Positions 9,801 through 47,086 of a stretch of 59,411 nt of DNA are shown here, piece after piece. The notes beneath the pieces were generated by a model. It had not been told where the DNA came from. It worked only from the letters and a program-made list of their open reading frames with translations, and searched no databases. Position numbers and translations under genes: made by a program. Within the stretch, counting starts at the first letter, position 1. Every line of letters begins with the position of its first letter. The stretch is from Candidatus Buchananbacteria bacterium (GTDB lineage: Bacteria > Patescibacteriota > Patescibacteriia > 2-01-FULL-39-33), in contig JBAYGU010000002.1 in assembly GCA_041666505.1 (NCBI GenBank), positions 1 through 59,411 of the forward strand. The letters run 5' to 3'.

Positions 9801-12800
9801 TTCGCCTTTGATCGATGGCAGATATGCCGTCAAGATCGGCAATTTTGAGATCTATAAATGCTCGAATGGCGCGGCAGCCACATCTTCTAATTTTGCTAGT
9901 CGAGCCACTAATTGCACTTTGCTGAATAAGACTGTTTCAGATAAATGGACCGCCAATGTTTTCAATTATAATCATAAGGATATAACACTGGCAGAATTGA
10001 CTGCCATGTCTGCCAGCCAGCTCGGTTCTTCTACTCCTGAGGGCATTGCAATTTATCCGCCGACCGGCACTGCCCTCGACAAGGATTCCTGGTATAAGAT
10101 AGCCATCAAGGGCGGAGAAAGCGGAGTCAGGGGAGCTGATTCGACTTTGAACGAATCGCCGGAAGGCGTATTGCAAGTGCCAAGCAAGAACGCTCAATTG
10201 GATAGCGGCGCGGGATATTGGTACTACTGGTATTTCAAGACCGGCTTAGGCGAATGCCCGATTGATCAAGTGGCCGTCTTGCCTCAAATCAAATTCATGC
10301 CGAAGATCGGCGAGACTCAACAGTATCTGGCCGATCCTTACGCCGCCAATTGCAATCATTTGAATCCGTACAGGTACAAATGGAAATGGGATTCTTTGGT
10401 CAATCCTTTCAGCGATCGCTGTTCGGCTGCTAATCCGACATCGGGCGATTATATCGCGACTATCTGTGAAAGCGGCGCGAGTTGTAATCCAGCCAATGAA
10501 CCTGATCTTTCAGTTTTCGGCAAAGCGGCCGTCAAGGCATTCGGGCAGAATGAGGGCAATACGAAAATCACGGCAGCCGCCGTGCAAGGCGAATGCAAGG
10601 ATTACAAATGGGGAGCGGGCGAATTGCAGGTCGGCTTCGGCGGTTTCAAGGTGTCGGAACACAGCAATTCCAATTGCTTGAATACTGATTTGTTAATTAA
10701 TTTTACCCAAGATGCCAAGAGTACCAGCTTATACAGCAATGTAAAATTATATCAGTGCGATGATGCGGCTTGCCAGACTGTTTCCGAATCGAATTTAAAA
10801 TCAATAGATATAAATAGCCCTCAGGGATTGCCTGGCAACCCCAATCCTTTATTTACCAATCAGGTTTATTTTACGCCTAGATCAAGTGATTTGCTCGAAC
10901 CGGGCAAAACATATCGTGTCGTAATCAAGGGGGGGCAAAGCGGCGTGGTTTCTGCATATAATACGAATCTGCTGAATTTGAATTACAGCCTTGTTCCGAA
11001 TAGTGGCGGAGAAGCTTGCGATCCGTCATTGTATCCGTGGCGACCGGGCGATCATCAGGCTGGATTGTGTTCCGCCACTTGTACTTTGACTGGTAATCTT
11101 TGCGGCACGACATCAGCGCAGTGCAATCCTGCGACCGACCCGCTTTGCGATGCCACTTGCCATAAAGCCGGCAATAGTAATACAATTGCCAGCTGCGGCA
11201 ACAGCAAGATAGAAGCGACTGAGAATTGCGATGACGGCAATACGAAAAACGGCGACGGCTGCAGTTCTCATTGCCTGCTTGAAGGCAGTAATAGCGCTTA
11301 TGGCTCGCTTTGCGGCAATGGCAAAGTGGAAAGAGGAGAAGCCTGCGATGACGGCAATATTAGCAATGGCGACAGTTGCTCCTCTAAATGCTTATTGGAG
11401 GCTGTTGATAATAATGTTCTGACTAACGTAGATTTTGAAAACGGCACGGTCGGCAGTGCGCCGCTGAATTGGTCTGTCGCTTCTCAATCTCATTCTAGTG
11501 TGGCGATTTCCGATACCTATGCCCGATCTGGAACTAAGAGCGTTAAGATAACCCAGGATGCCAATCAGCCTTATCCCGGCATTTGCAATCAGGTGATCTG
11601 CGCTGATTTCCCTGCCTGGCTTAAATGCACTTGGCTGCCAGCCACTTCCCAATGCCAATTCGATCAGCCCGATAATGCCCATCCGATGACTCCTAAGCCG
11701 ATTTATAATTCCGGCCAGACCTTTATTTGGGGTAATACCCATCGCGTAATGTGGGGTTCGTTGTATTATGATGTTTCCAATCTCGGTTTCAGGATCGGCC
11801 AGAAGTATATAGTCAAATTCAACTATAAGGGGGAGATTGATCCTCAAAGCCGCGTTGACGCCCAATTCAGCTTTAATCCGGGTTGGATTGCGCAATGCAA
11901 TCAGAAGCAAGCGCCGAATATAAAGCCCGATGGCAGCTGTCTTTACGGCAGTGATTGTTCAGACCAGCCAGGGTATTGCTGCGTCCAAGCACCTGTGCAA
12001 ACAAAATGTTACACTGGAGTCAATTTGCCGACGTTAAGTTCTGGGAATTTCGGTGTCGGTTCTTGGAAGGAATATCGGACAGAATTCACTTATACTTCTG
12101 AATTAGCCCAGTTATTCAATAGTGCGGGCAAATTAACCAATACCATTTCTTTAAGCATCCCTTATGCCAATATAACAAATGGTACGACGCTTTATATCGA
12201 TGATTTTTCCGTCGAGCGGGTCGGCTCTGATCCGAATGCGCCGATTTGCGGCAACAGTAAAATTGAAGCGGGGGAAGAATGCGATTCCGGTTCAGCCAAC
12301 GGTCCGGCTAATCGCTGTGGCAGCAATTGCTTGCTTAATGGTGCGCCAGCAGCCGCCGCTGGCGGAACCTGCGGCAATAAGAAATTGGAAAACGGCCAGT
12401 TCGACAGTTATTCTTGGACATTTGTTTTAACAGACAAGGCTCAAGTCTGCCAGGCGGTCAATTTCGAATTGAATCCTTGCCCTAACGGCGTCTGGTCCAT
12501 TTCCGCCGATTCGAATGTCAGTGATCTGTCTTTGAAATTCTATAAAGGCAGCAAGAGTGATACGGGCAGCTGCATTTCCGATGCGCAGATGAATAATTTG
12601 AGCTTCTGGCGCAGAATCTTCAATCAATTCGTAAGAATCATTAAATCATTCTTGGGCTTTAGATCCGTAATTGCCGCAGATTGGTGGTGCCCGATCAATG
12701 ATTACGCTGACGGTGCTTTCGATGCTGCTGCTCTGAGTTCGATGCGATTAGGTAATTATAAGAGAGATATAACTATTGACGGGGCTGCCCAAAATACTGA

Positions 12801-15800
12801 AGTCATCGCTTATACGGATGATTCCGACAACTATAAGATCAATTTCATCCGCAGCAGTAATTGGGATACGAATACCGAGTATAAAGCAGTCGCAATCTTC
12901 GATCGCAAGGGTGTTGCGGGAACTTCCACTGCGTCCGTAACGACATTCAGCCAATCTTGCAAAATGAAAAGCGTCAAGTTCGATGTCTGGCCGCGCGGCT
13001 TGGCAAAATCCGCTGATGGCTTCTTCTGCGCCTCTGATCCTTTGACAGGCAAGCCGGATGATTGCGGCCGTTCTTCCGAGGATCTTTATGATGACGATAT
13101 GTCAGCGCCATGGACGATGAATAAGGCAGACAATGGCTATAATTTGGACAGTGATGGCATGGCGCAAGCGGCGATCGGCAATAATTATAAAGGCGGCAAT
13201 CAGCATCTGTATCGAGTCTGGCCGTTGGATAGCAATAGGTATGTGTTGCGCGGAAACAATTTCTTAGCTTCATTGTCAAATATCGGTGCTGCAAAAACCA
13301 CATTGTCAGAAATTGGCAGTACTGATTATAAGGGTGATTTTTGGACCACCCCTGGCTTCAATCCCGGCCGCTCGTTCTTTGACGTTGATATCAGCGATAG
13401 TGATCCTTCCGCAAATAATGCCTTCGGAACATTGCCCATCTTCACGTACTTTTGCAATAATCCTTGGCCGGATGCGAAGAATTTCCCCTTCATCGATAGT
13501 TCCGACAACTGCAAGGCTGGAAGCGGTTCCTGTATTAACACCAATTTCGGCACGTATTATTGCCGCGATGCCGGAAAGGCTGATTCTACCGCTGACGATC
13601 TGCCCTCTATCGCCAATTATGACGCTTCCACTAAGACATTCGGCGCCGGAACAGGTGTAGTCATGGGGCTTGCCGGCAATAATAAGCTCAAGGAATTCTT
13701 GTTTGCCGGCAGACAGGCGACTGGCAGAGATGGTGCGGCTGTGTTTATTGCCGGTTCGTCAACGAGCGATATTAGTCCGGCTATTACAAATGATACTGAA
13801 GGAAGCTTGACTAGTTCGTGGGGAGCCAACGATGGCCAAGTGAAAGATTTTGTCTATCATTTGAATGTCGCAACACTTGGAAAATTTAATATAACGCTGG
13901 AAACATCTAATGATGCCAATGCCGATATTTTTGATCTCGGTTTCAATTCCAATTACGGCACATGCGTCCAAGGCACTGACCTGATCGGCAATAAACTGTA
14001 TCAGAATTTGCTCATTTCAGTTGATGGCGTCGGGACAAGCACGATAAAAGCATTAGCCAGCGCGCCGGAAAATCATCAATTCAACCGGTTAGTTCAGCCG
14101 TTAATTTTATCGGTTGGACAGCATACTATTACAATTAGATTTTTGAATGATTGTATCTGCGATGCAGTTTATGGCCAGTCATGCGCTTCCGGCCGGCTTG
14201 ATTCTAATTTAAAAATTTACGGCATATTACTGAATAACGCTGATCCGACCGGGGCGACTGACGCCATCGGCTTGAGGATGTATAACAATAATAACCATTA
14301 TTCTCCGGAATTATGGTACAAGTCGCTGTTTAATCCCGGATTGCAGGGCAATTTGGAGAAGTTATCTGTCGATGGCTATAGCGCAGCGCAAGAAGGCAGG
14401 ACGGTTTATGTCAATGCGGCTGATTTCAACGGCGGACAATCCATTGTTTATTCCGATATATATCTGATGTCGTATAATCAGGGCGCAAGCAAAGCGACGG
14501 AAAATATCTATGGACAGATGATCAGCAATTGGTTCTTCAATGCCGGCTCCAAGGCCGATGGCGGATTGGAATATGGCGCAGCTTTGGGTTATTGCAGCCA
14601 GGGGACAGAGACCGAAGACAATAAATGCTTTACTGATTTGGACTGCGTGAAACGTAATGCCGGTTTCTGCAGATCCGAAAAAGCCAAAATTACCAGGGAT
14701 ACCCAGAGGTTGTCGGACGTGCAGGATATTTATAATTCAATGTCCGGCTATCATGATAAGCTGCGCTGTTCTAATGACTTCAGCCGCGCTTGCAGCAATA
14801 ATGCCGGCTGTTTCGGCGGTGGCACTTGCGGACATTTCTATCCGAATCTGCGCGCCGGCACATACATCACCGGCAAGACATACAGCGCCTGGCCGAGTTG
14901 GCAAGATAATCTGGCCAAGGAATTTGGAGTTAAATTGCCCGTCGATCCAATTAATAAATTCTGGGTTTGGGATGGAACTAAATCAATCAATTGCTCCAAT
15001 CCATATAATTCTGTTACTTGCTGGGATGAGACTAGCAGGAGGATGGAATGTAATCTTGATTATAATTCCGCTGTTTATGCTTATTACGGCACTAAGTCCG
15101 GCACATCTACAAGGGTTTATGCCAAGGGTGAATATAATTATGGCACTGGCGAACTCGATCCGTTTAAGGCGGTATGGTCGCCGGCCTGGCAGGATGTTGT
15201 TAATCTTAACTATGATATTTTTGGCGGATATAACAGCTTAATTAGGGGTGGCCAATTCTGCGTCGCTGCCAGTGATACTTGCGGCGACGGATCATGCAAT
15301 AATTCTGAAACTTGTTCGACTTGCCCGATAGATTGCGGCTGCAGCGGCAAAAAATCCTGCAATCAGAATGCCGGAACATGGATCTGCAGCATCAAGCAGG
15401 CGCCGGTCGCGGCAGCTAAGAACTGCGGCAATGGCACATTTAGCGATTCCGGAGAAGATTGCGATTTCATCAATGGCGTGCCACTTGTCGGTATGAACGG
15501 ATTAAATCCGATTTATGTAACATCTACGGTCAATGGCCAGCTGGCTTGTACAGATCAATGTAAATTTCCCCCATGGTTTAATGATGTCAAGGTATATTAC
15601 AGGGATAATGATTATAAGTCTTGCGGCGACGGCTTGAGGACAGACCAGGAAGAATGCGATTGCGGTACAATAGACGGAGTTTTCGGTATAGGAAATCAAA
15701 AATATAATCCGTTCATTTGTAATTCGCTCAATAGTTCATTTGATTCTTCTGCTTCGATTTATGTCTCAGACCCCTCCGAGTTAAGGGATTTTACTTTTTG

Positions 15801-17616
15801 CGACACTACTTGCCAGCGCCATGACAAGGGCAATTATTCTTATTGCGGTGACAGCCACTGGGCAGATCCCGCTGTTGTCACGGGATCGGGGGAACAATGC
15901 GATTTAGGTTTTAATAATGGCAAAGCCGGATCAGGCTGCTTGGCAGATTGTAAATGCGATTTAGCCGATGGATATGCTTGCAGCGGCGGCGTGCCGTCAA
16001 AATGCGGAAATGGGACTCCTGATTCGGGCGAAGCCTGCGATTTGGGCCTAGGAATTAATGGAACTAATGGCTGTACTACGAGTTGCGCTTGTGCGGCGAC
16101 CTACGTTTGTCCGGGCGGCGTGCCGACTAAGTGTGGCAATGCCGTTGTTGATGCCGGCGAAGCCTGCGATTTGGGTCTGGGAATTAATGGAACCAATGGC
16201 TGTACTACGAGTTGCGCTTGCAAAGCCGGTTATGATTGCACTGGAGGAATTCCCCAGCTCATGTGTGGCAATGGGCATTCTGATCCGGGTGAAAATTGCG
16301 ATTTAGGCAATCCGGCAGTTATTCCCGGCGGGCAAAACGGCGTAACCGGCAGCGGCTGCAGCAGTATTTGCGATTTTACTTGCACGGCGGCCGGACCGCT
16401 CAGCGAGCAGAATATTATCCTCTCCAAAACTAATTTCACTGTTACTGGGCAGACTGCGAATTTTTCGACTCCGAATTGCCGGCTCGCAAAGGACATTGAA
16501 TCAGATATAACGATCAGCGGTAACGTCGGTTCGACAGAGATAGTGTTCGTTACTGACGTATCCGCAAGTATGGACATCGCAAGCCTAAAAATTGCTATCA
16601 CAGCGGCCATTGCCAGGATATTCGATGAATTGCCGTCCGCAAAAATCGGCTTGGTTCATTTTTCCGATGTTGCCGCAAATGATGTCGAGGCAGCTGTTTG
16701 TCCCAGATCGCTGTGCGATGATAGCCAGGAAGCTTACTTGGATAGCAGGATAAATTTATATGCAGGCTCCGGCGGAACCAATCCGGCATCGGGATTGCAA
16801 GTTGCATCTAATCTGTTCAACGGATCAACGGCTCAGAATAAAATTATCATTTTTATGAGCGACGGTTCGCCAACTAGTAATAGTGATGACAGTATAGTTG
16901 AAAACGTGACTACCTGGGCTAATGCCAATAAGAGCGCAAGCATCGCGATTTATTCCGCTGCCCTGACAATAGATTCTAATCTGAAAGGGGCGATGAATTA
17001 CTGGTCATCCAATAACGGCGCAGGCAATAGTCCCAATTCGGCGCCTAGTACCAAATGCAGCGGATTCGTGGGACCGCTTGGAGGGTGCAATTTCGGATAT
17101 TGGATGTTAGACGATGTGTATTCAGCTGACGGCTGCAATGGAAATAATTATTGCTTCAGCAATACTGATTTAGGAAGCCTTTTCACTTCGATCATCAGCC
17201 GGGTTTTGACGAATTTGCCTCAGTCAGGAATCCAAATCAGAGTCGATGGCACTAATACTAGTTTTAATAATGTCCTGCCGAATCCTGACGGCAGCCCCAA
17301 GACTTATAATGCCAAATCAATTAATTTGCCCGCGGTGGTCTGTTCTGGCGGTTCGCACACGATGCAAATCGACTATGTGGGAGATGGAAGCGTTTCTTTG
17401 GCAAACACGAAAATTTATTATTGTCCTGATTTTACACATTTCTTAGCACAGAGTAATGCTGATAGTCAATTCGCTGGCCCAAAAAATAAAGCGAATTCTC
17501 GTGTTGCCGGTGCTTTTGAAAAAACAACTAATGCCGCAGGCAGTTTGTGGCAGGAAATTTTAAGTATTTTCTGGCAATTGCTGCCTGGCAATATAATTAA
17601 ATCATTCGTTAAATAA
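6811..17616 (+). CDS. giant surface protein (3601 aa): pilin-like N-terminus, Ig/IPT-like, Cys-rich repeats, CBM-like, C-terminal vWA
   Basis: The N-terminal module is the same as in the 3535 ORF (MLYAGFTWMTAAGDPAKVDKAKKMIQQVVIGLIIIFSAFAI). About ten CGNxKxExGExCDDGNxxxGDGCSxxC-type cysteine repeats are present. A CBM-like block begins NVDFENGTVGSAPLNW. A vWA/MIDAS signature EIVFVTDVSASMD ... GGTNPASGL ... IIIFMSDGSPT lies near nt 16530-17220. Confidence 0.85.
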   Translation: MLQKNKKLILTSLLLIAAFLFLPAIVFAAGEVPSLGLFGGIFGEATLAQIIIRLIQFFLTVLGFIALVIMLYAGFTWMTAAGDPAKVDKAKKMIQQVVIGLIIIFSAFAITAFIYDRFGPPVGPPNGCVGPECPPPPSCVGPGCTPYWTNYPPEIAYINPALDVLSNTDQRTLAATSTSDDISNGAPGNYVSIVGRYFGNVPGKIFFVSRSDGSRIQAQLAPCARSWSSNLIIALVPAGLTLSGASHEADVATQDPLRNYDVIIEKLASDSSTLTSNIWGFQVNSIERPGICSMVPNHGVYPATTTLTGFKFPIVTPRNIVWSISPNFTSSTGSNWSSSTVVDVVPQDLAGRSLVSIFNGESYSNSFLFMISNGRAGSPCGYDTQSCREDITTCDAETDLACQFCSTDPTKPNYQENCNISRNCTCQPIVDESCEYNASSTLNSYRNCTVGGCLGQEACSNKSVWSKSCELPAGSTCVPFLGNSSNIAAFSWAFSALKNPAPGMSCKSEIWNDDTCDVNGCIDTNLACDPLATADHPACTCVPKDQLCTVGKIDTTTCPALGACKQVKACQDSGHWGECAVTPGCIPYPLVPASTIASYSWSFGANNGNGDVGPMVETSCDGSIDCSKNRLPSPSPWSDEWNAANHPELGIQNDKACLNAEIYARFTAAMSSATISSSTIRLYVSSTSGWIDQTNAKVEEVEPLLSEGEGDNADSFAIKLKPGIDLDPNSIYRVFLSNQIRDVVGRNLIDNPSGARNSLCAVGGSSPTAAAGVCWSFITRPSGPDAICQIGCVNCGPNKYFNRYYGQEKEHKVTPVSLDNACISLNNRDYAWDWSQEQQNLGGAVTNGWFLQKFFSATYSWLTNPFAADTIGIASQPANTVTTGYGTTTAYQESRWKTNADYKSWFGADDIDYFRIKGQVKATGNVGVCAVHNNFTDPIVIENQYCSKTSSSTNPQLNKQILQSPSPWKGQTDACTNAAIFALFSRNMFNSSLLELSSPLIDGRYAVKIGNFEIYKCSNGAAATSSNFASRATNCTLLNKTVSDKWTANVFNYNHKDITLAELTAMSASQLGSSTPEGIAIYPPTGTALDKDSWYKIAIKGGESGVRGADSTLNESPEGVLQVPSKNAQLDSGAGYWYYWYFKTGLGECPIDQVAVLPQIKFMPKIGETQQYLADPYAANCNHLNPYRYKWKWDSLVNPFSDRCSAANPTSGDYIATICESGASCNPANEPDLSVFGKAAVKAFGQNEGNTKITAAAVQGECKDYKWGAGELQVGFGGFKVSEHSNSNCLNTDLLINFTQDAKSTSLYSNVKLYQCDDAACQTVSESNLKSIDINSPQGLPGNPNPLFTNQVYFTPRSSDLLEPGKTYRVVIKGGQSGVVSAYNTNLLNLNYSLVPNSGGEACDPSLYPWRPGDHQAGLCSATCTLTGNLCGTTSAQCNPATDPLCDATCHKAGNSNTIASCGNSKIEATENCDDGNTKNGDGCSSHCLLEGSNSAYGSLCGNGKVERGEACDDGNISNGDSCSSKCLLEAVDNNVLTNVDFENGTVGSAPLNWSVASQSHSSVAISDTYARSGTKSVKITQDANQPYPGICNQVICADFPAWLKCTWLPATSQCQFDQPDNAHPMTPKPIYNSGQTFIWGNTHRVMWGSLYYDVSNLGFRIGQKYIVKFNYKGEIDPQSRVDAQFSFNPGWIAQCNQKQAPNIKPDGSCLYGSDCSDQPGYCCVQAPVQTKCYTGVNLPTLSSGNFGVGSWKEYRTEFTYTSELAQLFNSAGKLTNTISLSIPYANITNGTTLYIDDFSVERVGSDPNAPICGNSKIEAGEECDSGSANGPANRCGSNCLLNGAPAAAAGGTCGNKKLENGQFDSYSWTFVLTDKAQVCQAVNFELNPCPNGVWSISADSNVSDLSLKFYKGSKSDTGSCISDAQMNNLSFWRRIFNQFVRIIKSFLGFRSVIAADWWCPINDYADGAFDAAALSSMRLGNYKRDITIDGAAQNTEVIAYTDDSDNYKINFIRSSNWDTNTEYKAVAIFDRKGVAGTSTASVTTFSQSCKMKSVKFDVWPRGLAKSADGFFCASDPLTGKPDDCGRSSEDLYDDDMSAPWTMNKADNGYNLDSDGMAQAAIGNNYKGGNQHLYRVWPLDSNRYVLRGNNFLASLSNIGAAKTTLSEIGSTDYKGDFWTTPGFNPGRSFFDVDISDSDPSANNAFGTLPIFTYFCNNPWPDAKNFPFIDSSDNCKAGSGSCINTNFGTYYCRDAGKADSTADDLPSIANYDASTKTFGAGTGVVMGLAGNNKLKEFLFAGRQATGRDGAAVFIAGSSTSDISPAITNDTEGSLTSSWGANDGQVKDFVYHLNVATLGKFNITLETSNDANADIFDLGFNSNYGTCVQGTDLIGNKLYQNLLISVDGVGTSTIKALASAPENHQFNRLVQPLILSVGQHTITIRFLNDCICDAVYGQSCASGRLDSNLKIYGILLNNADPTGATDAIGLRMYNNNNHYSPELWYKSLFNPGLQGNLEKLSVDGYSAAQEGRTVYVNAADFNGGQSIVYSDIYLMSYNQGASKATENIYGQMISNWFFNAGSKADGGLEYGAALGYCSQGTETEDNKCFTDLDCVKRNAGFCRSEKAKITRDTQRLSDVQDIYNSMSGYHDKLRCSNDFSRACSNNAGCFGGGTCGHFYPNLRAGTYITGKTYSAWPSWQDNLAKEFGVKLPVDPINKFWVWDGTKSINCSNPYNSVTCWDETSRRMECNLDYNSAVYAYYGTKSGTSTRVYAKGEYNYGTGELDPFKAVWSPAWQDVVNLNYDIFGGYNSLIRGGQFCVAASDTCGDGSCNNSETCSTCPIDCGCSGKKSCNQNAGTWICSIKQAPVAAAKNCGNGTFSDSGEDCDFINGVPLVGMNGLNPIYVTSTVNGQLACTDQCKFPPWFNDVKVYYRDNDYKSCGDGLRTDQEECDCGTIDGVFGIGNQKYNPFICNSLNSSFDSSASIYVSDPSELRDFTFCDTTCQRHDKGNYSYCGDSHWADPAVVTGSGEQCDLGFNNGKAGSGCLADCKCDLADGYACSGGVPSKCGNGTPDSGEACDLGLGINGTNGCTTSCACAATYVCPGGVPTKCGNAVVDAGEACDLGLGINGTNGCTTSCACKAGYDCTGGIPQLMCGNGHSDPGENCDLGNPAVIPGGQNGVTGSGCSSICDFTCTAAGPLSEQNIILSKTNFTVTGQTANFSTPNCRLAKDIESDITISGNVGSTEIVFVTDVSASMDIASLKIAITAAIARIFDELPSAKIGLVHFSDVAANDVEAAVCPRSLCDDSQEAYLDSRINLYAGSGGTNPASGLQVASNLFNGSTAQNKIIIFMSDGSPTSNSDDSIVENVTTWANANKSASIAIYSAALTIDSNLKGAMNYWSSNNGAGNSPNSAPSTKCSGFVGPLGGCNFGYWMLDDVYSADGCNGNNYCFSNTDLGSLFTSIISRVLTNLPQSGIQIRVDGTNTSFNNVLPNPDGSPKTYNAKSINLPAVVCSGGSHTMQIDYVGDGSVSLANTKIYYCPDFTHFLAQSNADSQFAGPKNKANSRVAGAFEKTTNAAGSLWQEILSIFWQLLPGNIIKSFVK
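16027..16229 (+). repeat. 129-nt (43-aa) tandem duplication inside the giant gene
   Basis: ggcgaagcctgcgatttgggcctaggaattaatggaactaatggctgtactacgagttgcgcttg at 16027 recurs at 16156 with only a few substitutions. It encodes GEACDLGLGINGTNGCTTSCAC twice. Confidence 0.85.
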
Positions 17617-30802: not shown

Positions 30803-31925
30803 ATGGATGAAATAATAACGCAAATCAAGGTCTTGGCCGACAGAATCAACGGCGCTTGGAGGTTACTTTGACCTCGATAAAAAGGGTTTAGAATTGAAGG
30901 TCTGGGAAGAGGAGATCAATGCTCCTGGTTTTTGGGATGATCAAGATCGTGCCAAAAGTTTGAGCCAAGCCTATCAAGGTCTGCAAGATGAGATAAACAC
31001 TTGGCAGAAAATCAAAATGGAAACGGGCGAGCTATTGGAGCTGGTGCGAATTTTTACGACGCCGGAAGAAAAAATGGATCATGAGCCCGAGATCAAGACA
31101 AAACTAGCTGAATTGGAAGGGCGTTTCGAAAAATTAGAATTTACAATATTATTTTCCGGCGGCTACGATGCTGGCAATGCGATCATATCCATCCACGCCG
31201 GCACGGGCGGAGTGGATGCGATGGATTGGGCGGGCATGCTGCCCCGCTCATACTTGCGATTTTGCGAGCGGCATAATTTCAGCGCCAAGATCGTCGATGA
31301 GACGGCGGGAACGGAAGCAGGAATAAAAAGCGTGACGATAGAAGTCAGCGGCGCTTACGCCTACGGCTGGCTCAAGAGCGAAAACGGCGTGCATCGCCTA
31401 GTGCGTATCTCGCCGTTTGATGCGGAGAAGATGCGCCATACCTCTTTCGCCTTAGTGGAAGTCCTGCCGGAAATCGAGGACGTAAAGAATATCGAGCTTA
31501 AAGATGAGGATTTAAAGATTGATGTCTTTCGTGCCGGCGGCCATGGCGGCCAGTCGGTCAATACTACTGATTCGGCGGTCCGCATCACCCATATCCCTAG
31601 CGGCATTCAAGTCAAATGCCAGAATGAACGCTCGCAGGTGCAGAATAAGGCGATGGCGATGAAGATCCTGAAAGCCAAACTGGCCAAATTCTACGAGGAG
31701 CAGGCCTCGGCTGATCTGCAGAAATTCAAAGGCGAGCATCGCAAAGCCGAGTGGGGCAACCAGGCGCGCTCTTACGTCCTCCAGCCATATCGCTTGGTCA
31801 AGGATCATCGCACCGAACACGAAACTAATGATACCGATCGCGTTCTGGATGGCGAGATCGATGATTTCGTCGAGGCTTACCTGAAGTGGAAAGCCATGCC
31901 TACCGGCAGGCAGGCGCAGCAGTAG
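30803..31925 (+). CDS. prfB: peptide chain release factor 2, requires +1 frameshift
   Basis: Frame 0 reads MDEIITQIKVLADRINGAWRLL then TGA (30869-30871). The +1 frame continues DLDKKGLELKVWEE... and contains the SPF and GGQ motifs. Confidence 0.9.
30858..30872 (+). promoter_or_regulatory. prfB programmed +1 frameshift site
   Basis: ggaggttaCTTTGAc: an SD-like GGAGG lies 3 nt upstream of the slippery CTT followed by TGA C, as in the classical RF2 site. Confidence 0.85.
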
Positions 31926-31932
31926 TGTTGTT

Positions 31933-33498
31933 ATGTCCAAATCTTCTGTATTTTTTTATTGCCTCGTGTGGTTCATAGCCGGAATTTTTTCCGGCCCGTC
32001 CGCAACGCTTCGCGTAGCGATGCGGGCGGGTTATTTTTTTGCCGTGCCGCACTTTTATATTTTCTGCATCATGTTATTTCTGATATTGATCATTATAATG
32101 CTGAAATTTTCAAAATTAGAATGTTCCTTGCCGTATGTCGCATGTTCATTATTTGTTATTTCCTTCATATTTGGCTTCTGGCGCTATAACCTGGCTCTGT
32201 CCGATTATTCAGATACAGCGAAGATTTATCATTACAGCAGTTCGTCAGTCGAATTTATCGGCAGGGTTAAGAATATTGATAGCCGCTTGGCCGGGCAGAA
32301 ATTGACAGTGCAGTCGGAATTATTACAGAAAGAATCCGGCTTAAAAAATATCAGCGGCCGAGTCCTTATATCTGCTCCGCTTTATCCGGAGTATCAGATA
32401 AATGAAAAAATAAGAGTCAAATGTTATTTAGAAAAGCCGGGTATGATCGAGGATTTTGATTACGGTAAATACCTGGCTAAGGAAAATATTTTTGCTACTT
32501 GCAGTTTTGCCGACTTGTCTTCGATTAGTTTGCCGAGCAGCTATTCATTCGCCGCGCAATTTTACCGCTTCAAGCGCTATCTGGCCTTGCGATTGAATGC
32601 GTCCGTCAGCGAGCCGGAAGTTTCTTTGCTGCGCGGCATACTTCTGGGTGACGGGCGCGGACTGCCGGAAGACAAAGCGAAGATGTTTTCCGATCTCGGC
32701 TTGACGCACATCATCGCCATTTCCGGCGATCACATCGCGATAGTGGCGGCGGCGTTATTGCAGCTTCTCATGTTATTCGGCTTGTCACGCATCAAGGCCT
32801 TTTGGCCTCTCGCTGCCATTATCGGCTTATATGTGTTGCTGGTCGGAGCGCCGGCTTCGGCGGTGCGCGCAGCGATTATGGCACTAAGCGTTATGTACGC
32901 GCAGAAAATCGGCCGAGCCAGCCAGATTAAGAATGTTCTCGTCTTGACGGCGGCCGTGATGATTTTATTTAATCCGCGCATCCTTTTGGGCGATGTCGGC
33001 TTCCAATTGTCGTTTATGGCCGTCTGGGGGCTTAGTTACATTTCCCCACTTTGGGCCACTTTTTTACAAAAAATGCCTAGCTTATTCAAAACTAAGGAGA
33101 TTCTCACCGCTACTTTAAGCGCGCAGATCGCTACCTTGCCTTTGCTGTTATTTTATTTCGGTAAGCTATCGATTATTTCCATCGCGGCTAATATTTTGAT
33201 CCTGCCGGTCATTCCGTTATTGACCATTTGGGGCTTGGCCAATTTATCTGTTTCCGCGATTTATCTGCCTCTGGGCAGGATTATGGGTTACGTCAGTTGG
33301 CTGCTGTGCGCTTATTGGATCAAGATTTCCGAGTTGCTGCATCAAGTACCATTCGGTTTTTTCAATCTTGGTAATTTCGGCCTGGTTGAATTAGTTTTAC
33401 TGTATGTATTGATTTTTGGCTTGTATTATTTGATGATCAAGCGTAATAAAAATATTAATTTTGCATCCAGGCCGGTCTTGACAGTATTCGATAAATAG
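31933..33498 (+). CDS. comEC: ComEC/Rec2 DNA uptake channel (OB + competence domains, no MBL domain)
   Basis: 521 aa and polytopic. An OB-like segment (VEFIGRVKNIDSRLAGQKLTV) is followed by a competence domain (LGLTHIIAISGDHI, GFQLSF). Confidence 0.85.
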   Translation: MSKSSVFFYCLVWFIAGIFSGPSATLRVAMRAGYFFAVPHFYIFCIMLFLILIIIMLKFSKLECSLPYVACSLFVISFIFGFWRYNLALSDYSDTAKIYHYSSSSVEFIGRVKNIDSRLAGQKLTVQSELLQKESGLKNISGRVLISAPLYPEYQINEKIRVKCYLEKPGMIEDFDYGKYLAKENIFATCSFADLSSISLPSSYSFAAQFYRFKRYLALRLNASVSEPEVSLLRGILLGDGRGLPEDKAKMFSDLGLTHIIAISGDHIAIVAAALLQLLMLFGLSRIKAFWPLAAIIGLYVLLVGAPASAVRAAIMALSVMYAQKIGRASQIKNVLVLTAAVMILFNPRILLGDVGFQLSFMAVWGLSYISPLWATFLQKMPSLFKTKEILTATLSAQIATLPLLLFYFGKLSIISIAANILILPVIPLLTIWGLANLSVSAIYLPLGRIMGYVSWLLCAYWIKISELLHQVPFGFFNLGNFGLVELVLLYVLIFGLYYLMIKRNKNINFASRPVLTVFDK

Positions 33499-33515
33499 CT
33501 GTCAAAATAATTGTG

Positions 33516-33524
33516 TGGTATAAT
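33516..33524 (+). promoter_or_regulatory. extended -10 promoter element
   Basis: TGgTATAAT lies 22 nt upstream of the ATG at 33546. It argues against the tracked GTG start at 33513. Confidence 0.45.
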
Positions 33525-33545
33525 ATAATAACTAACATACTCTAT

Positions 33546-34610
33546 ATGAACAAATCAATTTATCTTTTAATTTTCGCTTCGGCATTATTTTTTGCCGGTT
33601 CAGCCAAGGCGGCTGTGTATTCGCCGATGGCCGGCGACTTGGTAAAAATCGCAGCCAATACGGCGGTTTATATTATTGATGATAATCTTAAGCGGCATCT
33701 TTTCTCTAACGCGGTGACTTTCTGGTCATGGCATACCGGCACCTGGGCCGATCAAAAGATAAAAACAATCACGCAGACGGAATTCGATTCGTTCGATGCC
33801 GATACTAATGTCAAGGTGAGAGCCGGCTCAAATCTGATCCAATTTGATAATAGCAATAAGATTTATGCGGTTACCCCTGGCGGCGTTTTATGCGAGACGC
33901 GCGCTCTTTACGGCGCGGACTTCATGACGCGGGTGGTGAAGATTCAAAGCGCTTTCGAGACTGATTATATCAAAGACAATGCTTGCATCGTCGCTTCCGA
34001 TGGCAAATATCCCGATGGCTCTTTGATCCAATATGCCAAGTCAATCGATATCTGGCTGATCGATGGTGGAAAAAAGCGCCGAGTCTCCGCCGAGGGCTTC
34101 AAGGCTAACGGCTACAAGGACAGCTCATTATTGAAGAATGTGCCGGTATCGATGGTTTATGTAGCTGATAATAGAAGCATCAGCGCTATCGATTATAATC
34201 TCGGCATATTATACAGCCTGAATTATTCCCGCGCGGTCGATATCACTTCGCGGCCCGATTTCATCATTTCCGACATCATATTCCCCACAGCGCGGATAAT
34301 CGTCAATACGACGGCAGACATCAAATTGATCATAAAGAATACTGGCGGCAATCTGACGTCCGACCTGGGCTTGAAGAACATAATTTTTACCGGCCAGGAT
34401 TGGACCACAGCAAGCGTCGCTCATGCCAGCTATCCGACGACTATTAATCCGCTTAAGACCGGCCAGACTTTCGAAGTCACTTATACGGGAAAGTTTGTCG
34501 CTTCGGGAGAAAAGAATTTCACCGCCAAAGTCAATGAGCCGAGCGAGATCACGGAAATCAACAGCATCAACAATAGTTACGCGGAAAAAATCACCGTTTA
34601 CGCGCAGTAA
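33546..34610 (+). CDS. secreted protein with C-terminal CARDB-like domain
   Basis: It has a signal peptide (MNKSIYLLIFASALFFAGSAKA). The C-terminal segment DFIISDIIFP...IKLIIKNTGGN...NNSYAEKITV resembles CARDB/Ig-like adhesion domains. Confidence 0.75.
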   Translation: MNKSIYLLIFASALFFAGSAKAAVYSPMAGDLVKIAANTAVYIIDDNLKRHLFSNAVTFWSWHTGTWADQKIKTITQTEFDSFDADTNVKVRAGSNLIQFDNSNKIYAVTPGGVLCETRALYGADFMTRVVKIQSAFETDYIKDNACIVASDGKYPDGSLIQYAKSIDIWLIDGGKKRRVSAEGFKANGYKDSSLLKNVPVSMVYVADNRSISAIDYNLGILYSLNYSRAVDITSRPDFIISDIIFPTARIIVNTTADIKLIIKNTGGNLTSDLGLKNIIFTGQDWTTASVAHASYPTTINPLKTGQTFEVTYTGKFVASGEKNFTAKVNEPSEITEINSINNSYAEKITVYAQ

Positions 34611-34620
34611 TTAATATTCT

Positions 34621-35520
34621 GTGTTCACCAAAAATTATAAAAAACTTCTTGCCGCAGCCTTGATCATTGTTGCGCTGGCTGTCATCAGATTTTATCAAGC
34701 GCCGGGTAATTCCGGCGCTGTTTTGAATGCCTTCGATATTAATGCGACTTCGACCTCGAACAATCTAAAGTTGGTATTTTTCGATGTCGGACAAGGCGAT
34801 TCGTCTTTGATCATTACGCCGGATGGCGAGGATATTTTGGTCGATGGCGGGCCCGATAATAAAGTAGTACAGAAACTGGGTGAATATCTGCCATATAGCG
34901 ACAGAAAAATCGAATACATAATCTTGACGCATCCGCATGCCGATCACCTGACGGGACTTTTAGAGGTTTTGAAAAGATACGAAGTCGGCAAGATAATTAT
35001 GACCAGGGTCGTTCATACGACGAATGATTACCAGGAATTTTTGCGATTGATTAAAGAAAAAAATATTCCTGTTTTGATTATTGATAAGCAACAAGGCTTA
35101 GCAATCGGCGGCATCAATCTTGATTTTCTGGAGCCGGAAAAATCTTTCTTTGAAGCGAGGCCCGATAATCTCAATAATAGTTCGATTGTCTTTAAACTGG
35201 ATTTCGTTTCGACGACGGCGCTTTATACGGGAGATTTTGAAAATGAGGAAGATTTATTACTTTATTCTTTGACAACTTTGGCAGCTAATGTTTTGAAGGT
35301 CGGACATCACGGATCGACAAATGCCAATGATGAAGACTTCATTAAAGCTGTCGATCCTGAGTTTGCAATCATTTCTGTCGGCAAAGACAATAAGTTCGGC
35401 CATCCGCATTACCGCACGTTGCACTACCTGCAGGAAACTGGTGCGGAGATTTTCCGCACTGATGAATCGGGAGATGTCGTTATTATAAGTGATGGTCAAA
35501 AGTATCGGCTAGACAGGTAA
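34621..35520 (+). CDS. metallo-beta-lactamase fold nuclease (ComEC C-terminal domain homologue), membrane anchored
   Basis: GTG start. It has an N-terminal TM helix, FFDVGQGDSSLI and the HPHADH motif, plus KVGHHGS, as in the ComEC MBL domain. Confidence 0.8.
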   Translation: MFTKNYKKLLAAALIIVALAVIRFYQAPGNSGAVLNAFDINATSTSNNLKLVFFDVGQGDSSLIITPDGEDILVDGGPDNKVVQKLGEYLPYSDRKIEYIILTHPHADHLTGLLEVLKRYEVGKIIMTRVVHTTNDYQEFLRLIKEKNIPVLIIDKQQGLAIGGINLDFLEPEKSFFEARPDNLNNSSIVFKLDFVSTTALYTGDFENEEDLLLYSLTTLAANVLKVGHHGSTNANDEDFIKAVDPEFAIISVGKDNKFGHPHYRTLHYLQETGAEIFRTDESGDVVIISDGQKYRLDR

Positions 35521-42182: not shown

Positions 42183-42272
42183 AAAAAAACACGGATGATG
42201 CCGTGTTGGGATTTGATTGAAAAATGATGAAAAAAATTGAGGGTCAAGCGGCTACTGCGTCGCTTGACCCTC
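42183..42272 (-). terminator. two tandem minus-strand rho-independent terminators
   Basis: The first is a 12-bp perfect stem gagggtcaagcg/cgcttgaccctc (42239-42272) followed, on the minus strand, by aattttttt. The second is the hairpin aacacgg-atgatg-ccgtgtt (42188-42207), followed on the minus strand by a T-run. Confidence 0.75.
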
Positions 42273-42982
42273 GGAACAAACAGGTGCTGCTTTCCTGACG
42301 GGCTGGCATACTATACCAGCTCCGTCTTTGCTACTTTCGCGCCCGGTGCCTCATATGGCTCCGAACGATCCTCGCGCACCCGACTGATCGGGTCGCATTT
42401 CTTCTCGTTGGTGTTTCCAGCGAGATCGCGGGAAGCCGGCCCGGAGCAGTCACGAATGACCTGCATAGCCGGCTCCCCGCACAACTTCGTTTACCAGTAC
42501 CCGTTTCCGACCAGCTTCTTCCTGCGAACACTAATCGTCGCGGTCCACCGAATCGGATAGTACTGGCTTGTTTCGCGCCGGTTCGTCTTTGGGCTAAGCC
42601 CTCGCCCGCTGAGGTAATAATTCTGCCTCAGCGGGCTACCATGAAAGAAGTCTGCTACGACCGCACATGAAGTGGGTCATGGAGGTTTTCTCCTGGTTGC
42701 GATGCGCGGGTTTTAAAGCCGCACACCTCGCCGCAGTCTCAATTTTGCCCTCTCACACGGGGCGATGTGCTACGAAAATACCGTAGCTACACAAACGCAC
42801 AACGATTGCGAATGTTATATCGCTTTCGAAGCATGCGTCTTCCTCTCCTTTCGGCATTAGTTTAGCGGCGATCAATCGGCCGTTCAACTATAGTCAGGTC
42901 GGCGAACGGCCCAAAGGCGTTCGTCCCAACTATTTACGCAGACCGCGCTATTTGTGTTACCGCGCGGTTGATGCCGTTGGAA
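42273..42982 (-). ncRNA. candidate large structured RNA or long structured 3' UTR, family unknown
   Basis: This is a GC-rich, ~700-nt stretch with no convincing ORF. It has many helices. Two contain G-U pairs only when read on the minus strand: a 13-bp helix 42428-42440/42468-42480 and a 7-bp helix at 42301-42317. A perfect 10-bp hairpin lies at 42606-42636. The stretch is bounded by the ORF stop and the terminators. Confidence 0.45.
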
Positions 42983-43333
42983 CTACACCGCAACCTGGCG
43001 TGCCACAAAAACCTTGCGGCTGAACGGGCTGCGGGTCTGCGGGTGATTCATGCGGGCGAAGTTCGCCAGCATTTCATCACGCGCGCGGTCGATCGAGTCG
43101 GGATGTTCCTCCTCGACTTCGACAGCGCTCTTCACCCGCTTTGCTGTCGACTTCTGGAATTTCACCGAGAAGCTGTGCAGCTTTTTCAGGAAATCGAGAC
43201 CGCCCAGCAGGTGGATGCCCAAATGGGCGCCGCCGCTGACGGTGATCTCGCCTTTCCCCAAGTCGATCTTGACGCCCTTCTTCTTACGGAGGGCATCAAC
43301 GACACCGCTGAGCGAATACTTCGAAATCAACAT
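42983..43333 (-). CDS. hypothetical protein with foreign (high GC3) codon usage
   Basis: 116 aa counted from the second ATG, which is preceded by agaaggaaaaagaaa. By hand count the codon positions show the coding pattern GC3 >> GC1 > GC2. Composition is K-rich and balanced. I recognise no family. Confidence 0.6.
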   Translation of the reverse strand: MLISKYSLSGVVDALRKKKGVKIDLGKGEITVSGGAHLGIHLLGGLDFLKKLHSFSVKFQKSTAKRVKSAVEVEEEHPDSIDRARDEMLANFARMNHPQTRSPFSRKVFVARQVAV

Positions 43334-43430
43334 TTTCTTTTTCCTTCTCATTTTTCAACCCGCGCCATGCGGATTGTTGTCAACGTTCTACGCTTCCCAT
43401 CGGACTTTCCGACTTTCAGCGTAATATAAC

Positions 43431-43459
43431 AGTATAGCACATGGGCAAAATTTTGTCAA
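43431..43459 (-). promoter_or_regulatory. strong sigma70-type promoter for the GC-rich minus-strand unit
   Basis: The minus strand reads TTGACA (43459-43454), a 17-nt spacer, then TATACT (43436-43431). Confidence 0.65.
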
Positions 43460-43601
43460 GTGATTTATCCCACTTAATTCCGATTAATTATCGTTATTTA
43501 TCTAAATTTAAACAAAATAAATTATTAAAAAATAGCTATTTTAATCAAAAAGTAGTTATTTTTGTATTAGTGAGGTGTAAGATATCAGTATTTATCCACA
43601 A

Positions 43602-44759
43602 CTATTCTAGCTTTAACGCCCCGGCAGTATAGTTATTACCAGAATTCCACAGCAGCCAGCCGTTGACATTATTGTCCTCGGCCGCCTTGATTTGGGCTTT
43701 TACCCGGTCTGCCGTATAAACAGCGCCTAAATTGAAGTCCTGCAGCCAGGGTCGGGATGAGCCGATGACGGGATTGCTCGAGGAAGCCATGATTGCCGCC
43801 CCTTCTTTCATTGCTTTATCTACTACGGCATAGGGGCAAAGCACCGGATTGGCGCAGCCGGCGTAGGGCGAGCGGTAATGCGACGGGTAGACCATGGGCG
43901 AGATATAGTCGAAATATCGGGCCGCATCAGGCAGAAATTGCCCGATTCCCATGTCATAACTCGGGTTTTCCGGGTGCCTCTGATATGTCAGGCCGAATAA
44001 ATCGATAGACAGGGGAATATCCAAATCAGCCAGGTCTTGGCGCAAATAGCTGTAAAAATCAGCCAATACCGCCGTTCTTTTGCTGCCGGCCGGGAAATCG
44101 TAATAGGCGATTGATTTCAGGTTGCCATCGGAGGGAAAACGGATATAATCCAGTTGCACCTCGTCAAAACCGATATCTGCCGCTTCTTTTATCTGTGCCG
44201 CCACTAATTTCCATGTTTCAGGATTAGTCATATCCAGCCAGGTTACGCCTTTATAATCCTGCCAAATGCCTCCGCCGGTATTCTTTAGCGCTACTTTAGG
44301 ATAAGTTTTGGCCGCTGTGCTGTCTTGGAAAGTGGTAATTCTGGCGATTGAATAGATATCTTTTGTTTGCAGATCAACTAAAATAGCCTGATAATCCTCG
44401 TATTTGAGCGAAACGGAGGAAAGCGGCCACTTGGCCAGCCGTTCATCGAGAGGTTTGACCATTAATTTGCCGCCCGGATCCTTAAAGTCAATAACGACGG
44501 AATTAAGTTCTGTTTTGGCGATTAGGTCGAAAAGTTTGTCTCGGCGGGCTTTTTGGCTGAAGGTATAGCCAGTCATATATATGCCTTTGACTAGAGCGGG
44601 GGTTGGAAGAGCTTTTTTGACAAAAAAAATAGTGCTGGAAGCATTCTCTGCCAGCACTTGCGGTGAAATATTGCCGTATTCAGGCCAATAATAAACAATT
44701 CCGCCGATTATTGCGGCCGATACTGCTAAAACTGCGGTTATCAGCCAAATCTTGTTCAT
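43602..44759 (-). CDS. putative glycoside hydrolase-like TIM-barrel protein (DUF4015/GHL type)
   Basis: 385 aa with an N-terminal TM/signal segment. The blocks VKGIYMTGY, NSVVIDFKD and GFDEVQLDYIRFP are as I remember for this family. Confidence 0.7.
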   Translation of the reverse strand: MNKIWLITAVLAVSAAIIGGIVYYWPEYGNISPQVLAENASSTIFFVKKALPTPALVKGIYMTGYTFSQKARRDKLFDLIAKTELNSVVIDFKDPGGKLMVKPLDERLAKWPLSSVSLKYEDYQAILVDLQTKDIYSIARITTFQDSTAAKTYPKVALKNTGGGIWQDYKGVTWLDMTNPETWKLVAAQIKEAADIGFDEVQLDYIRFPSDGNLKSIAYYDFPAGSKRTAVLADFYSYLRQDLADLDIPLSIDLFGLTYQRHPENPSYDMGIGQFLPDAARYFDYISPMVYPSHYRSPYAGCANPVLCPYAVVDKAMKEGAAIMASSSNPVIGSSRPWLQDFNLGAVYTADRVKAQIKAAEDNNVNGWLLWNSGNNYTAGALKLE

Positions 44760-44910
44760 ATTCTATTATTATGGTAATTATACCACACTTTATCCACAAC
44801 CAGCCACAATCCTTTACATTTAGCTATAATTCAATTATTATTACTAAATCAGTACAAATATTGAAATTATAAATAATTTCTTATTTTCTTAATTTCTTAA
44901 TAAACTTGAT

Positions 44911-45279
44911 ATGCCAAACTTTCAAAAATTGGTAAATTTACTCAAAAAAACAGGAGATAAGGCAGTAATTCTTGACGAAAGCGGCGAGCCGGGCTATGTC
45001 ATTATGACCGTCGCCGACTACGAAGATTTAATTTTGGGCAAATCTGGCGTCTCGGGCTTGACAGAAGTCGAACTTTTAGATAAAATAAATCGTGATATTG
45101 CAATTTGGAAAGACAACCAGGAATTAAGGGAACTCTCTGTGGATCAGTATAATTTCGCCAAGGATTTGGGAGATTATCTGCCGGAGGGAAACTTATCCAA
45201 TTTTAGCGATAATGATGGTAATAATCTGCCTAATATTATCGATGAGGATCGCTATTATTTCGAACCAGTTGAAGGCTAA
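44911..45279 (+). CDS. hypothetical protein, N-terminus Phd/YefM-like
   Basis: 122 aa. KAVILDESGEPGYVIMTVADYEDL resembles antitoxin-type N-termini, but no partner toxin gene is adjacent. Confidence 0.5.
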   Translation: MPNFQKLVNLLKKTGDKAVILDESGEPGYVIMTVADYEDLILGKSGVSGLTEVELLDKINRDIAIWKDNQELRELSVDQYNFAKDLGDYLPEGNLSNFSDNDGNNLPNIIDEDRYYFEPVEG

Positions 45280-45302
45280 TGGCTGATAATAATTGGCGGC
45301 AC

Positions 45303-45330
45303 TTGCTTTTTGTCTGTTTTGTGCTATAAT
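45303..45330 (+). promoter_or_regulatory. promoter upstream of tuf
   Basis: TTGCTT (45303-45308), a 16-nt spacer, then TGcTATAAT (-10 at 45325-45330). A leader hairpin lies at 45387-45424 (tgagttc...ccagcc-tag-ggctgg...gaactca). Confidence 0.55.
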
Positions 45331-45442
45331 GGGATAACTGTAAATGTAGTTTAATAAACAAATAATAATAAATAATAATTTAATTTTGAGTTCTGGGTAA
45401 AACCAGCCTAGGGCTGGGAACTCAATCAAAAGGAATAATACC

Positions 45443-46627
45443 ATGGCAGAACAATTCCAACGCACTAAGCCGCATGTAAACGTCGGCACAATCGGTCACG
45501 TTGACCACGGCAAAACCACTTTGACTGCGGCTATTTTGGCTACTTTGACTGCTCGCGGCTTTACAGCTCAGAGCAAATCAGTCGATCAGATCGACGCAGC
45601 TCCTTAAGAAAAAGCTCGCGGTATCACTATCGCTACAGCTCATGTAGAATATGAGACAGAAAAGAGGCACTATGCTCACGTTGACTGCCCAGGCCATGCT
45701 GATTATATCAAGAACATGATCACTGGCGCCGCTCAGATGGATGGTTCCATCTTGGTTGTTGCCGCTACTGACGGCCCGATGCCTCAGACTCGCGAACATA
45801 TCTTGCTCGCCAGACAGGTTGGCGTTCCTTACATCATCGTTTTCATCAACAAAGTTGATCAGGCTGATCCGGAAATGCTTGAATTAGTCGAAGGAGAAAT
45901 CCGCGACTTATTGACCAAGTATGAATATCCTGGCGACACTACTCCGATCATCAAGGGCTCCGCTTTGAAAGCCTTGCAGAATCCTGCAGGTCCGGACGGC
46001 GATTGCATTATGGAATTGATGAATGCCTTGGATACTTATATCCCGGAACCTCAGCGCGCTACCGATCAGCCTTTCATGATGCCTATTGAAGATGTCTTCT
46101 CAATCGAAGGACGCGGCACTGTTGTCACTGGCAGAATCGAACGCGGTATCATCAAATTGAACGAAGAAGTCGAACTTGTCGGTTTAAGGCCGACTGCTAA
46201 GACTGTAGTTACTGGTATCGAAATGTTTAACAAGAATTTGGATGAAGGCAGAGCAGGTGATAACGCAGGTTTACTCTTGCGCGGCATCAAGAAGGAAGAT
46301 GTCGAACGCGGCCAGGTTTTGGCTAAAGTCGGCTCTATCACTCCTCATGCTGAATTCGAAGCTGAAGTCTATATCTTGAGCAAGGAAGAAGGCGGACGCC
46401 ACAAACCTTTCTTCAAGGGTTACAAGCCTCAATTCTACGTCCGCACTACTGACGTAACAGGCGAGATCGAATTGCCGGAAGGATCAGAAATGGTCATGCC
46501 TGGCGATACCGTCAACCTGAAGATCAAATTGGGCAAGACTGTCGCTATCGAAGATAAGATGAAATTCACTATTCGTGAAGGCGGCCATACTGTCGGCGCC
46601 GGTGTCGTAACGAAGATCATTAAGTAA
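45443..46627 (+). CDS. tuf: elongation factor Tu, interrupted by an in-frame TAA at 45605-45607
   Basis: [27 protein letters not shown]...[13 protein letters not shown]...DCPGHADY continues in the same frame into the tracked ORF 45716..46627. The stop replaces the first Glu of the conserved [11 protein letters not shown] block (GAA to TAA). Confidence 0.85.
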
Positions 46628-46750
46628 GTTTTCATTATACTCAGCGGGGATAAGCGCGAACTTGTCTCCGCGACAGTGAAATGAAAAAACAGTCATTGCG
46701 TCTATCAAATCATAATTCTTAATCGTTAGACGGTAAGACACAAAGAATCT

Positions 46751-47086
46751 ATGGCAACTAAAACAGCAGCAGAAGGCAAATCCCATCAGCGAATCAGGAT
46801 TAAGCTTAAGGCCTACGACCACAAAATCATCGACAACTCAGCTCGCAAGATCATTGATTCTTGCCATCGCTTTGGCGTGAATGTCATCGGACCGGTGCCT
46901 TTGCCGACGGAAAAGCGCAAGTATACCGTCAACAAATCCACTTTCGTCCATAAGAATGCCAGAGATCAGTTCGAGATGAGAACGCACAAAAGATTGATAG
47001 ATATTATCGATCCGACAGCGCAGGTCGTCGACGCATTAATGGGCTTGTCTTTGCCAGCCGGTGTCAACATTGAAATAAAAATGTAA
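46751..47086 (+). CDS. rpsJ: 30S ribosomal protein S10
   Basis: [16 protein letters not shown]..., [11 protein letters not shown]. Confidence 0.97.

Follow-up and report, generated by a model that had tools for sequence, protein, structure and literature searches.

UGA is read as glycine in the Gracilibacteria and Absconditabacteria (NCBI table 25), and the tuf gene described here shares with that reassignment an in-frame stop codon in a conserved gene of a small-genome CPR bacterium. It differs in that the codon is UAA, occurs once, and is the commonest true stop, with both RF1 and RF2 present and no genome-wide signal of reassignment. In the Proteobacteria, EF-Tu is encoded by the duplicate genes tufA and tufB, one copy of which can be lost; a disabling mutation in tuf is likewise seen in our record, but neither this genome nor, as a rule, its relatives have a second copy. 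Compared with canonical bacterial EF-Tu (TIGR00485; 6gfu_A and 1efc_A), the product is alike in its full length and in the completeness of its G1–G5 motifs and domains 2 and 3, and unlike in that the canonical protein has a glutamate where our record has TAA.

A different kind of precedent comes from the curation of metagenome-assembled genomes (MAGs). In part of their account, Chen, Anantharaman, Shaiber, Eren and Banfield (2020, Genome Res; PMC7111523) describe 13 local assembly errors in one 1.13 Mb CPR genome, and point out that, when local MAG errors go uncorrected, public databases inherit protein-coding genes that are incomplete or incorrect. The cases in that part of the paper (PMC7111523) resemble ours in that a CPR draft MAG carries a gene sequence unsupported by assemblies of the same population; they are regions without read support, and not specifically single substitutions, whereas the DNA described here was compared at the contig level.

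The window, by which we mean the whole 59,411-base stretch of DNA analysed, contains a tuf gene that is complete except for one codon, and its parts are as follows.

45443..46627, forward strand: tuf (EF-Tu), 394 codons plus a terminal TAA, intact except at codon 55.
45443..45604, forward strand: N-terminal piece of tuf, 54 codons, with the P-loop GHVDHGKT (residues 18–25); matches EF-Tu profile positions 4–54 only.
45605..45607, forward strand: in-frame TAA at codon 55 of tuf, with T at 45605 versus G in same-strain and related DNA.
45716..46627, forward strand: 303-aa open reading frame from M92, the form that gene callers give for this record; matches TIGR00485 positions 92–394.

The sequence around the stop reads GCT CCT TAA GAA AAA GCT CGC GGT ATC ACT ATC, and codon 55 is the sole internal stop between the ATG at 45443 and the terminal TAA at 46625–46627. 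The first-pass annotation had placed a TAA at this position within tuf, with no frame change into the open reading frame at 45716–46627, and reading the frame from the ATG confirms it. Although the window record does not hold EF-Tu as a single uninterrupted frame, the translation with X at the stop matches the TIGR00485 equivalog at full length (positions 4–394), with 687.9 bits against a cut-off of 522.4, and all three Pfam EF-Tu domains (PF00009, PF03144 and PF03143) are matched end to end. The GTP_EFTU domain covers residues 9–201 and thus runs across the stop, so that the match cannot be put down to two open reading frames aligned by chance. The GTPase motifs are complete: GHVDHGKT at residues 18–25, T62, DCPGH at 81–85, NKVD at 136–139 and SAL at 173–175, which are G1, G2 (the Thr of RGITI), G3, G4 and G5, respectively. 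With all domains complete and no further internal stop, the gene bears out the earlier remark that it is otherwise without decay.

The best solved relative of the tuf product is 6gfu_A (E = 1.5e-190), in which the residue aligned to X55 is a Glu, the first E of the ten-residue switch-I motif. The 303-aa open reading frame lacks G1 (the P-loop), G2 (T62 of GITI) and G3 (DCPGH, residues 81–85), and at 512.6 bits it falls below the TIGR00485 cut-off; the proposal that a restart at M92 would lose the P-loop therefore holds.

The assembly containing the window has 1,043,280 bases in 66 contigs, with a GC content of 0.439, and is 98.7% complete and 1.56% contaminated; the public runs that contain window DNA are mostly groundwater metagenomes, and no RNA run was listed among the 18. 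The names of protein clusters point to the Patescibacteria (CPR). The local gene order is prfB, two ComEC pieces, ndk, rpsL, rpsG, fusA, four open reading frames, tuf, rpsJ, rplC, rplD, rplW, rplB, rpsS, rplV, rpsC and rplP, so that tuf lies in the usual rpsL–rpsG–fusA...tuf–rpsJ cluster, and we regard the window gene as the canonical tuf. Searched in all six frames, the complete set of contigs has no second tuf; the four other matches are paralogous GTPases, 28–39% identical, in frames of 605–713 aa.

We found tuf in all 40 relatives searched, in 43 matches with no internal stops, and 37 of the 40 have a single match. The other three have two matches each, which are split fragments in G027, a partial second piece in G030, and a second copy with 79% identity in G003, a genome that is about 5% contaminated. 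The EF-Tu of the window is 94% identical to that of the closest relative. At the codon orthologous to codon 55, all 29 of the relatives' loci that were read have GAA, and a single substitution, T for G at 45605, sets the window apart; the earlier description of a conserved Glu codon one substitution away from TAA is thus correct.

Comparison with DNA of the same strain places the difference at a single letter. Two public runs match the window strongly, X1 and X2, which contain 0.94 and 0.92 of the sampled words, respectively, and come from different studies. Logan contigs of these and of two further runs, X3 and X4, were compared over positions 44800–46800; such contigs drop rare variants. The X1 contigs, at a depth of 21–27, tile the 2 kb, and records 1, 2, 4, 5 and 8 have no differences from the window. 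Record 3 (45496–45744; 249 nt, depth 26.7) has exactly one, a T to G change at 45605, which is the only X1 difference listed in its span at the fitting distance (110 letters) from the contig end. All of the contig depth at 45605 reads G in each of the four runs (105.3 of 105.3 in X1, from three contigs; 34.2 of 34.2 in X2; 7.23 of 7.23 in X3; 10.9 of 10.9 in X4), and no T-bearing contig was found in any of them at this contig level, at which rare variants are dropped. The X3 and X4 contigs are those of relatives, roughly 97% and 95% identical to the window, with 27 and 46 differences, respectively, over about 900 nt.

In X2, the same-strain contigs (depth about 7) end at 45514 and restart at 45701, with zero depth at 45640–45643; X1 bridges this stretch. 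The gap at 45515–45700 could have come about because depth is low or because the assembly graph branches there. The X2 contig that does cover 45605 probably belongs to a relative, since its depth is 34.2 and it ends 25 nt away, and with no same-strain contig over the site, X2 is uninformative on the allele of the window strain.

Gene calls on record point the same way as the X1 contigs. In a 15-billion-protein collection (JGI/IMG and ENA), the 394-aa read-through EF-Tu with Glu55 has an entry, identical in every residue, from a 59,447-base contig, and the truncated 303-aa product is recorded solely from a 59,411-base contig, which is the window. An exact look-up of 20 other window proteins found 18 on record. 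For 17 of these (10,491 aa, including one of 3,601 aa) the longest contig with the exact sequence is the 59,447-base contig, and since they show no amino-acid difference, we conclude that this contig is from the same strain. The eighteenth, the N-terminal part of ComEC, has records of 521, 492 and 466 aa that differ solely in where the start was called, and the two that are absent both have GTG starts and are uninformative. Among the proteins looked up, codon 55 of tuf is the only protein-level difference seen between the window and the 59,447-base contig. The two contigs differ in size by 36 bases, so they are not plain copies of one file and may be separate assemblies or samples. EF-Tu is therefore uninterrupted in DNA of the same strain elsewhere, both in X1 record 3 and in the Glu55 protein. 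An exact scan with the 50-base site, with N at 45605, gave no matches in metagenome_contigs or genome_contigs, from which near-own records were possibly left out. We note that the 90%-identity cluster of the window EF-Tu (P0001) is represented by a 51-aa sequence unrelated to it (P0002), which looks like a clustering oddity of the database.

None of the signs of recoding that we looked for was found: a stop conserved in orthologues, a decoding agent, or the same stop in other genes with depletion of TAA as a terminator. Among 627 open reading frames of at least 200 aa, 400 end in TAA, 125 in TAG and 102 in TGA, and tuf itself ends in TAA; the earlier statement that TAA is the normal stop of many genes is well founded. 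No tRNA with anticodon tta is among the 40 found by ARAGORN in the whole assembly. RF1 and RF2 both read UAA; prfA (RF1) is present, above its cut-off, and prfB (RF2) is in the window itself.

30803..31925, forward strand: prfB (RF2) with a programmed +1 frameshift site; TIGR00020, 458.2 bits.

The prfB gene starts with the ATG at 30803 and has 22 codons and an SD-like GGAGG before CTT TGA C at 30866–30872, after which the +1 frame matches TIGR00020 profile positions 27–353. The reported RF2 autoregulation at TGA is thus borne out, and this classical frameshift site shows that TGA is read as a stop, with standard UGA termination in a CPR genome.

A genome-wide scan for similarly interrupted genes considered same-frame pairs with at least 40 codons on either side of the stop (shorter pieces are invisible to it), and required the frame to score highest of the six on either side, with no start codon within 12 codons. 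Earlier settings gave 347 pairs, which was too noisy, and a 90-nt score window missed tuf (downstream score 0.18). The final scan returned 13 candidates, with tuf second by rank, and only tuf has an above-threshold Pfam domain across the stop (with X at the stop). Six of the others have no Pfam match, and the rest are ordinary neighbours, such as SecY and Adk, S20 and RlmN, RuvB and a membrane protein, and GT1 and DAGK. An ABC2_membrane_3 match across the stop of one candidate has E = 0.0049, below the cut-off, and is regarded as spurious.

We consider it highly probable that the window record has a single-base fault at 45605, where the T would be an error of assembly, consensus or polishing, or else a read variant, rare and non-viable, that entered the consensus. 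We infer that sequencing or assembly gave rise to the T; the assembler would have taken a wrong base, or such a variant, into the consensus at 45605. The organism, a groundwater member of the Patescibacteria (CPR) with a genome of about 1 Mb, would then carry an ordinary, intact, single-copy tuf with GAA (Glu55), and the genome is without anything able to decode UAA. EF-Tu is essential, and as this is the only EF-Tu, an allele with a stop at residue 55 could not predominate in a living population; it would lack G2–G5, with switch I and switch II and the guanine-binding motifs, as well as domains 2 and 3. Change of G to T is a typical oxidative-damage artefact of library preparation, but this carries no weight in our verdict. 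A consensus error was among the explanations first listed, to be recognised by sequencing reads with G at 45605, and a G is what is seen at the level of contigs (X1) and of gene calls (the Glu55 protein). If the source sample of the record is not X1, T could be the local consensus in that sample.

A minority allele was listed too, and it keeps its place beside a consensus error. It would be a real GAA to TAA nonsense allele in some cells or in relic DNA, lethal or very recent and non-functional, along whose branch the assembler went. We think this unlikely. T is present in the deposited record, which is 36 bases shorter than the contig with the intact gene and may come from another assembly or sample, and X2 has no same-strain contig over 45605. 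Against these stand the G of the same strain in X1 and the Glu55 protein on record, the zero of four runs with a T-bearing contig, and the absence of a second tuf to cover the loss; a lethal allele, moreover, cannot become the majority base that calling a consensus requires. The further proposal of an ordinary pseudogene with an intact paralogue elsewhere in the genome is not supported. In principle a copy could be missing from an assembly of 66 contigs that is 98.7% complete, but the six-frame search of all of it yields the window tuf alone, in its canonical position before rpsJ, and 37 of 40 relatives show one match, with fragments, a partial piece or a contaminated genome accounting for the other three. 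We regard such a paralogue as extremely improbable.

Programmed readthrough or suppression, in which UAA at codon 55 would be decoded often enough to make full-length EF-Tu, had likewise been suggested, and tuf is indeed otherwise flawless and the sole copy. The stop is found in none of 29 relatives, however, and other DNA of this strain reads GAA. The anticodon tta is missing from the 40 tRNAs found, RF1 and RF2 are both encoded, and most of the long open reading frames, like tuf, end in TAA; tuf also stands alone among the 13 scan candidates in having a domain across the stop. Natural readthrough in tuf was not found as a subject among the literature titles seen. Taken together, we find readthrough scarcely credible. 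A related reading, in which a sub-lineage has a genuine T as its fixed base and the essential, single tuf is expressed by efficient decoding of one switch-I UAA, we hold to be very unlikely; a near-cognate tRNA in a special context, for example, would then decode UAA without a dedicated suppressor tRNA.

With a single-base fault of the record as the preferred explanation, the organism has a normal EF-Tu and the stop is without biological weight; it matters for data quality. This is a species-representative genome, in which one wrong letter leaves the most conserved marker gene as a 303-aa fragment or a pseudogene. Marker-gene phylogenies can be distorted by such a fault in tuf, as can estimates of completeness and counts of pseudogenes, and candidates for recoding in MAGs should first be compared with other assemblies of the same population.

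The region upstream of tuf had been described as having a good promoter and a structured leader, and two elements can be recognised there.

45303..45330, forward strand: possible extended -10 promoter (TTGCTT, 16 nt, TGcTATAAT), read by eye.
45386..45425, forward strand: tuf leader hairpin, part of the minimum-free-energy fold (-17.8 kcal/mol).

The description is weakly borne out, in that the -10 element and the hairpin exist, but a strong site listed by the scan and an unusual fold do not. The consensus promoter scan lists no strong site directly upstream of tuf, and the possible promoter at 45303–45330 is not listed because its first hexamer matches at only three of six positions. The nearest forward-strand scan site to tuf is at 45351–45379 (9 of 12 matching), and the strongest in the region (11 of 12) is at 45058–45086, inside the upstream open reading frame. 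The hairpin is not statistically unusual (z = -1.34), as 20 of 200 shuffles fold as well. No Rfam family reaches its gathering score anywhere in the window, and the tuf leader therefore belongs to no known leader family.

The open reading frame directly upstream of tuf (44911–45279, forward strand) encodes 122 aa and has no Pfam or NCBIfam matches. It has a tblastn match in the 1.5-kb tuf-upstream flank of 24 of the 29 relatives, with 39–85% identity. In the Atlas its neighbours come from Candidatus Falkowiibacteriota and are hypothetical proteins; one of their clusters is auto-named a Phd/YefM-type antitoxin (score 0.93), which we take as a lead only. Contig depth spikes at 45068–45134, with 267 versus about 25 in X1, and blastn-short finds no other copy of this segment longer than 17 nt in the genome. 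Between fusA and the 122-aa open reading frame are three more (42237–44759), which are found in the tuf-upstream flanks of none of the 29 relatives; in many relatives no more than 1.5 kb separates the C-terminus of fusA from tuf. Of these three open reading frames, the one at 43602–44759 (reverse strand) encodes a DUF4015 putative glycosyl hydrolase (E = 4.1e-85).

Elsewhere in the window, ComEC is split into two open reading frames within 31933–35520 (forward strand), with the N-terminal competence domain at 31933–33498 and the C-terminal metallo-beta-lactamase part at 34621–35520 (TIGR00361 positions 421–663); between the two pieces is a 365-aa open reading frame with a CARDB domain (33513–34610). 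A giant open reading frame at 6811–17616 (forward strand) encodes 3,601 aa, and its exact sequence is on record from two contigs. The predicted protein has a T4SS-pilin-like N-terminus (residues 46–113), a Big_5 Ig-like domain, and a C-terminal von Willebrand A domain (residues 3244–3385).
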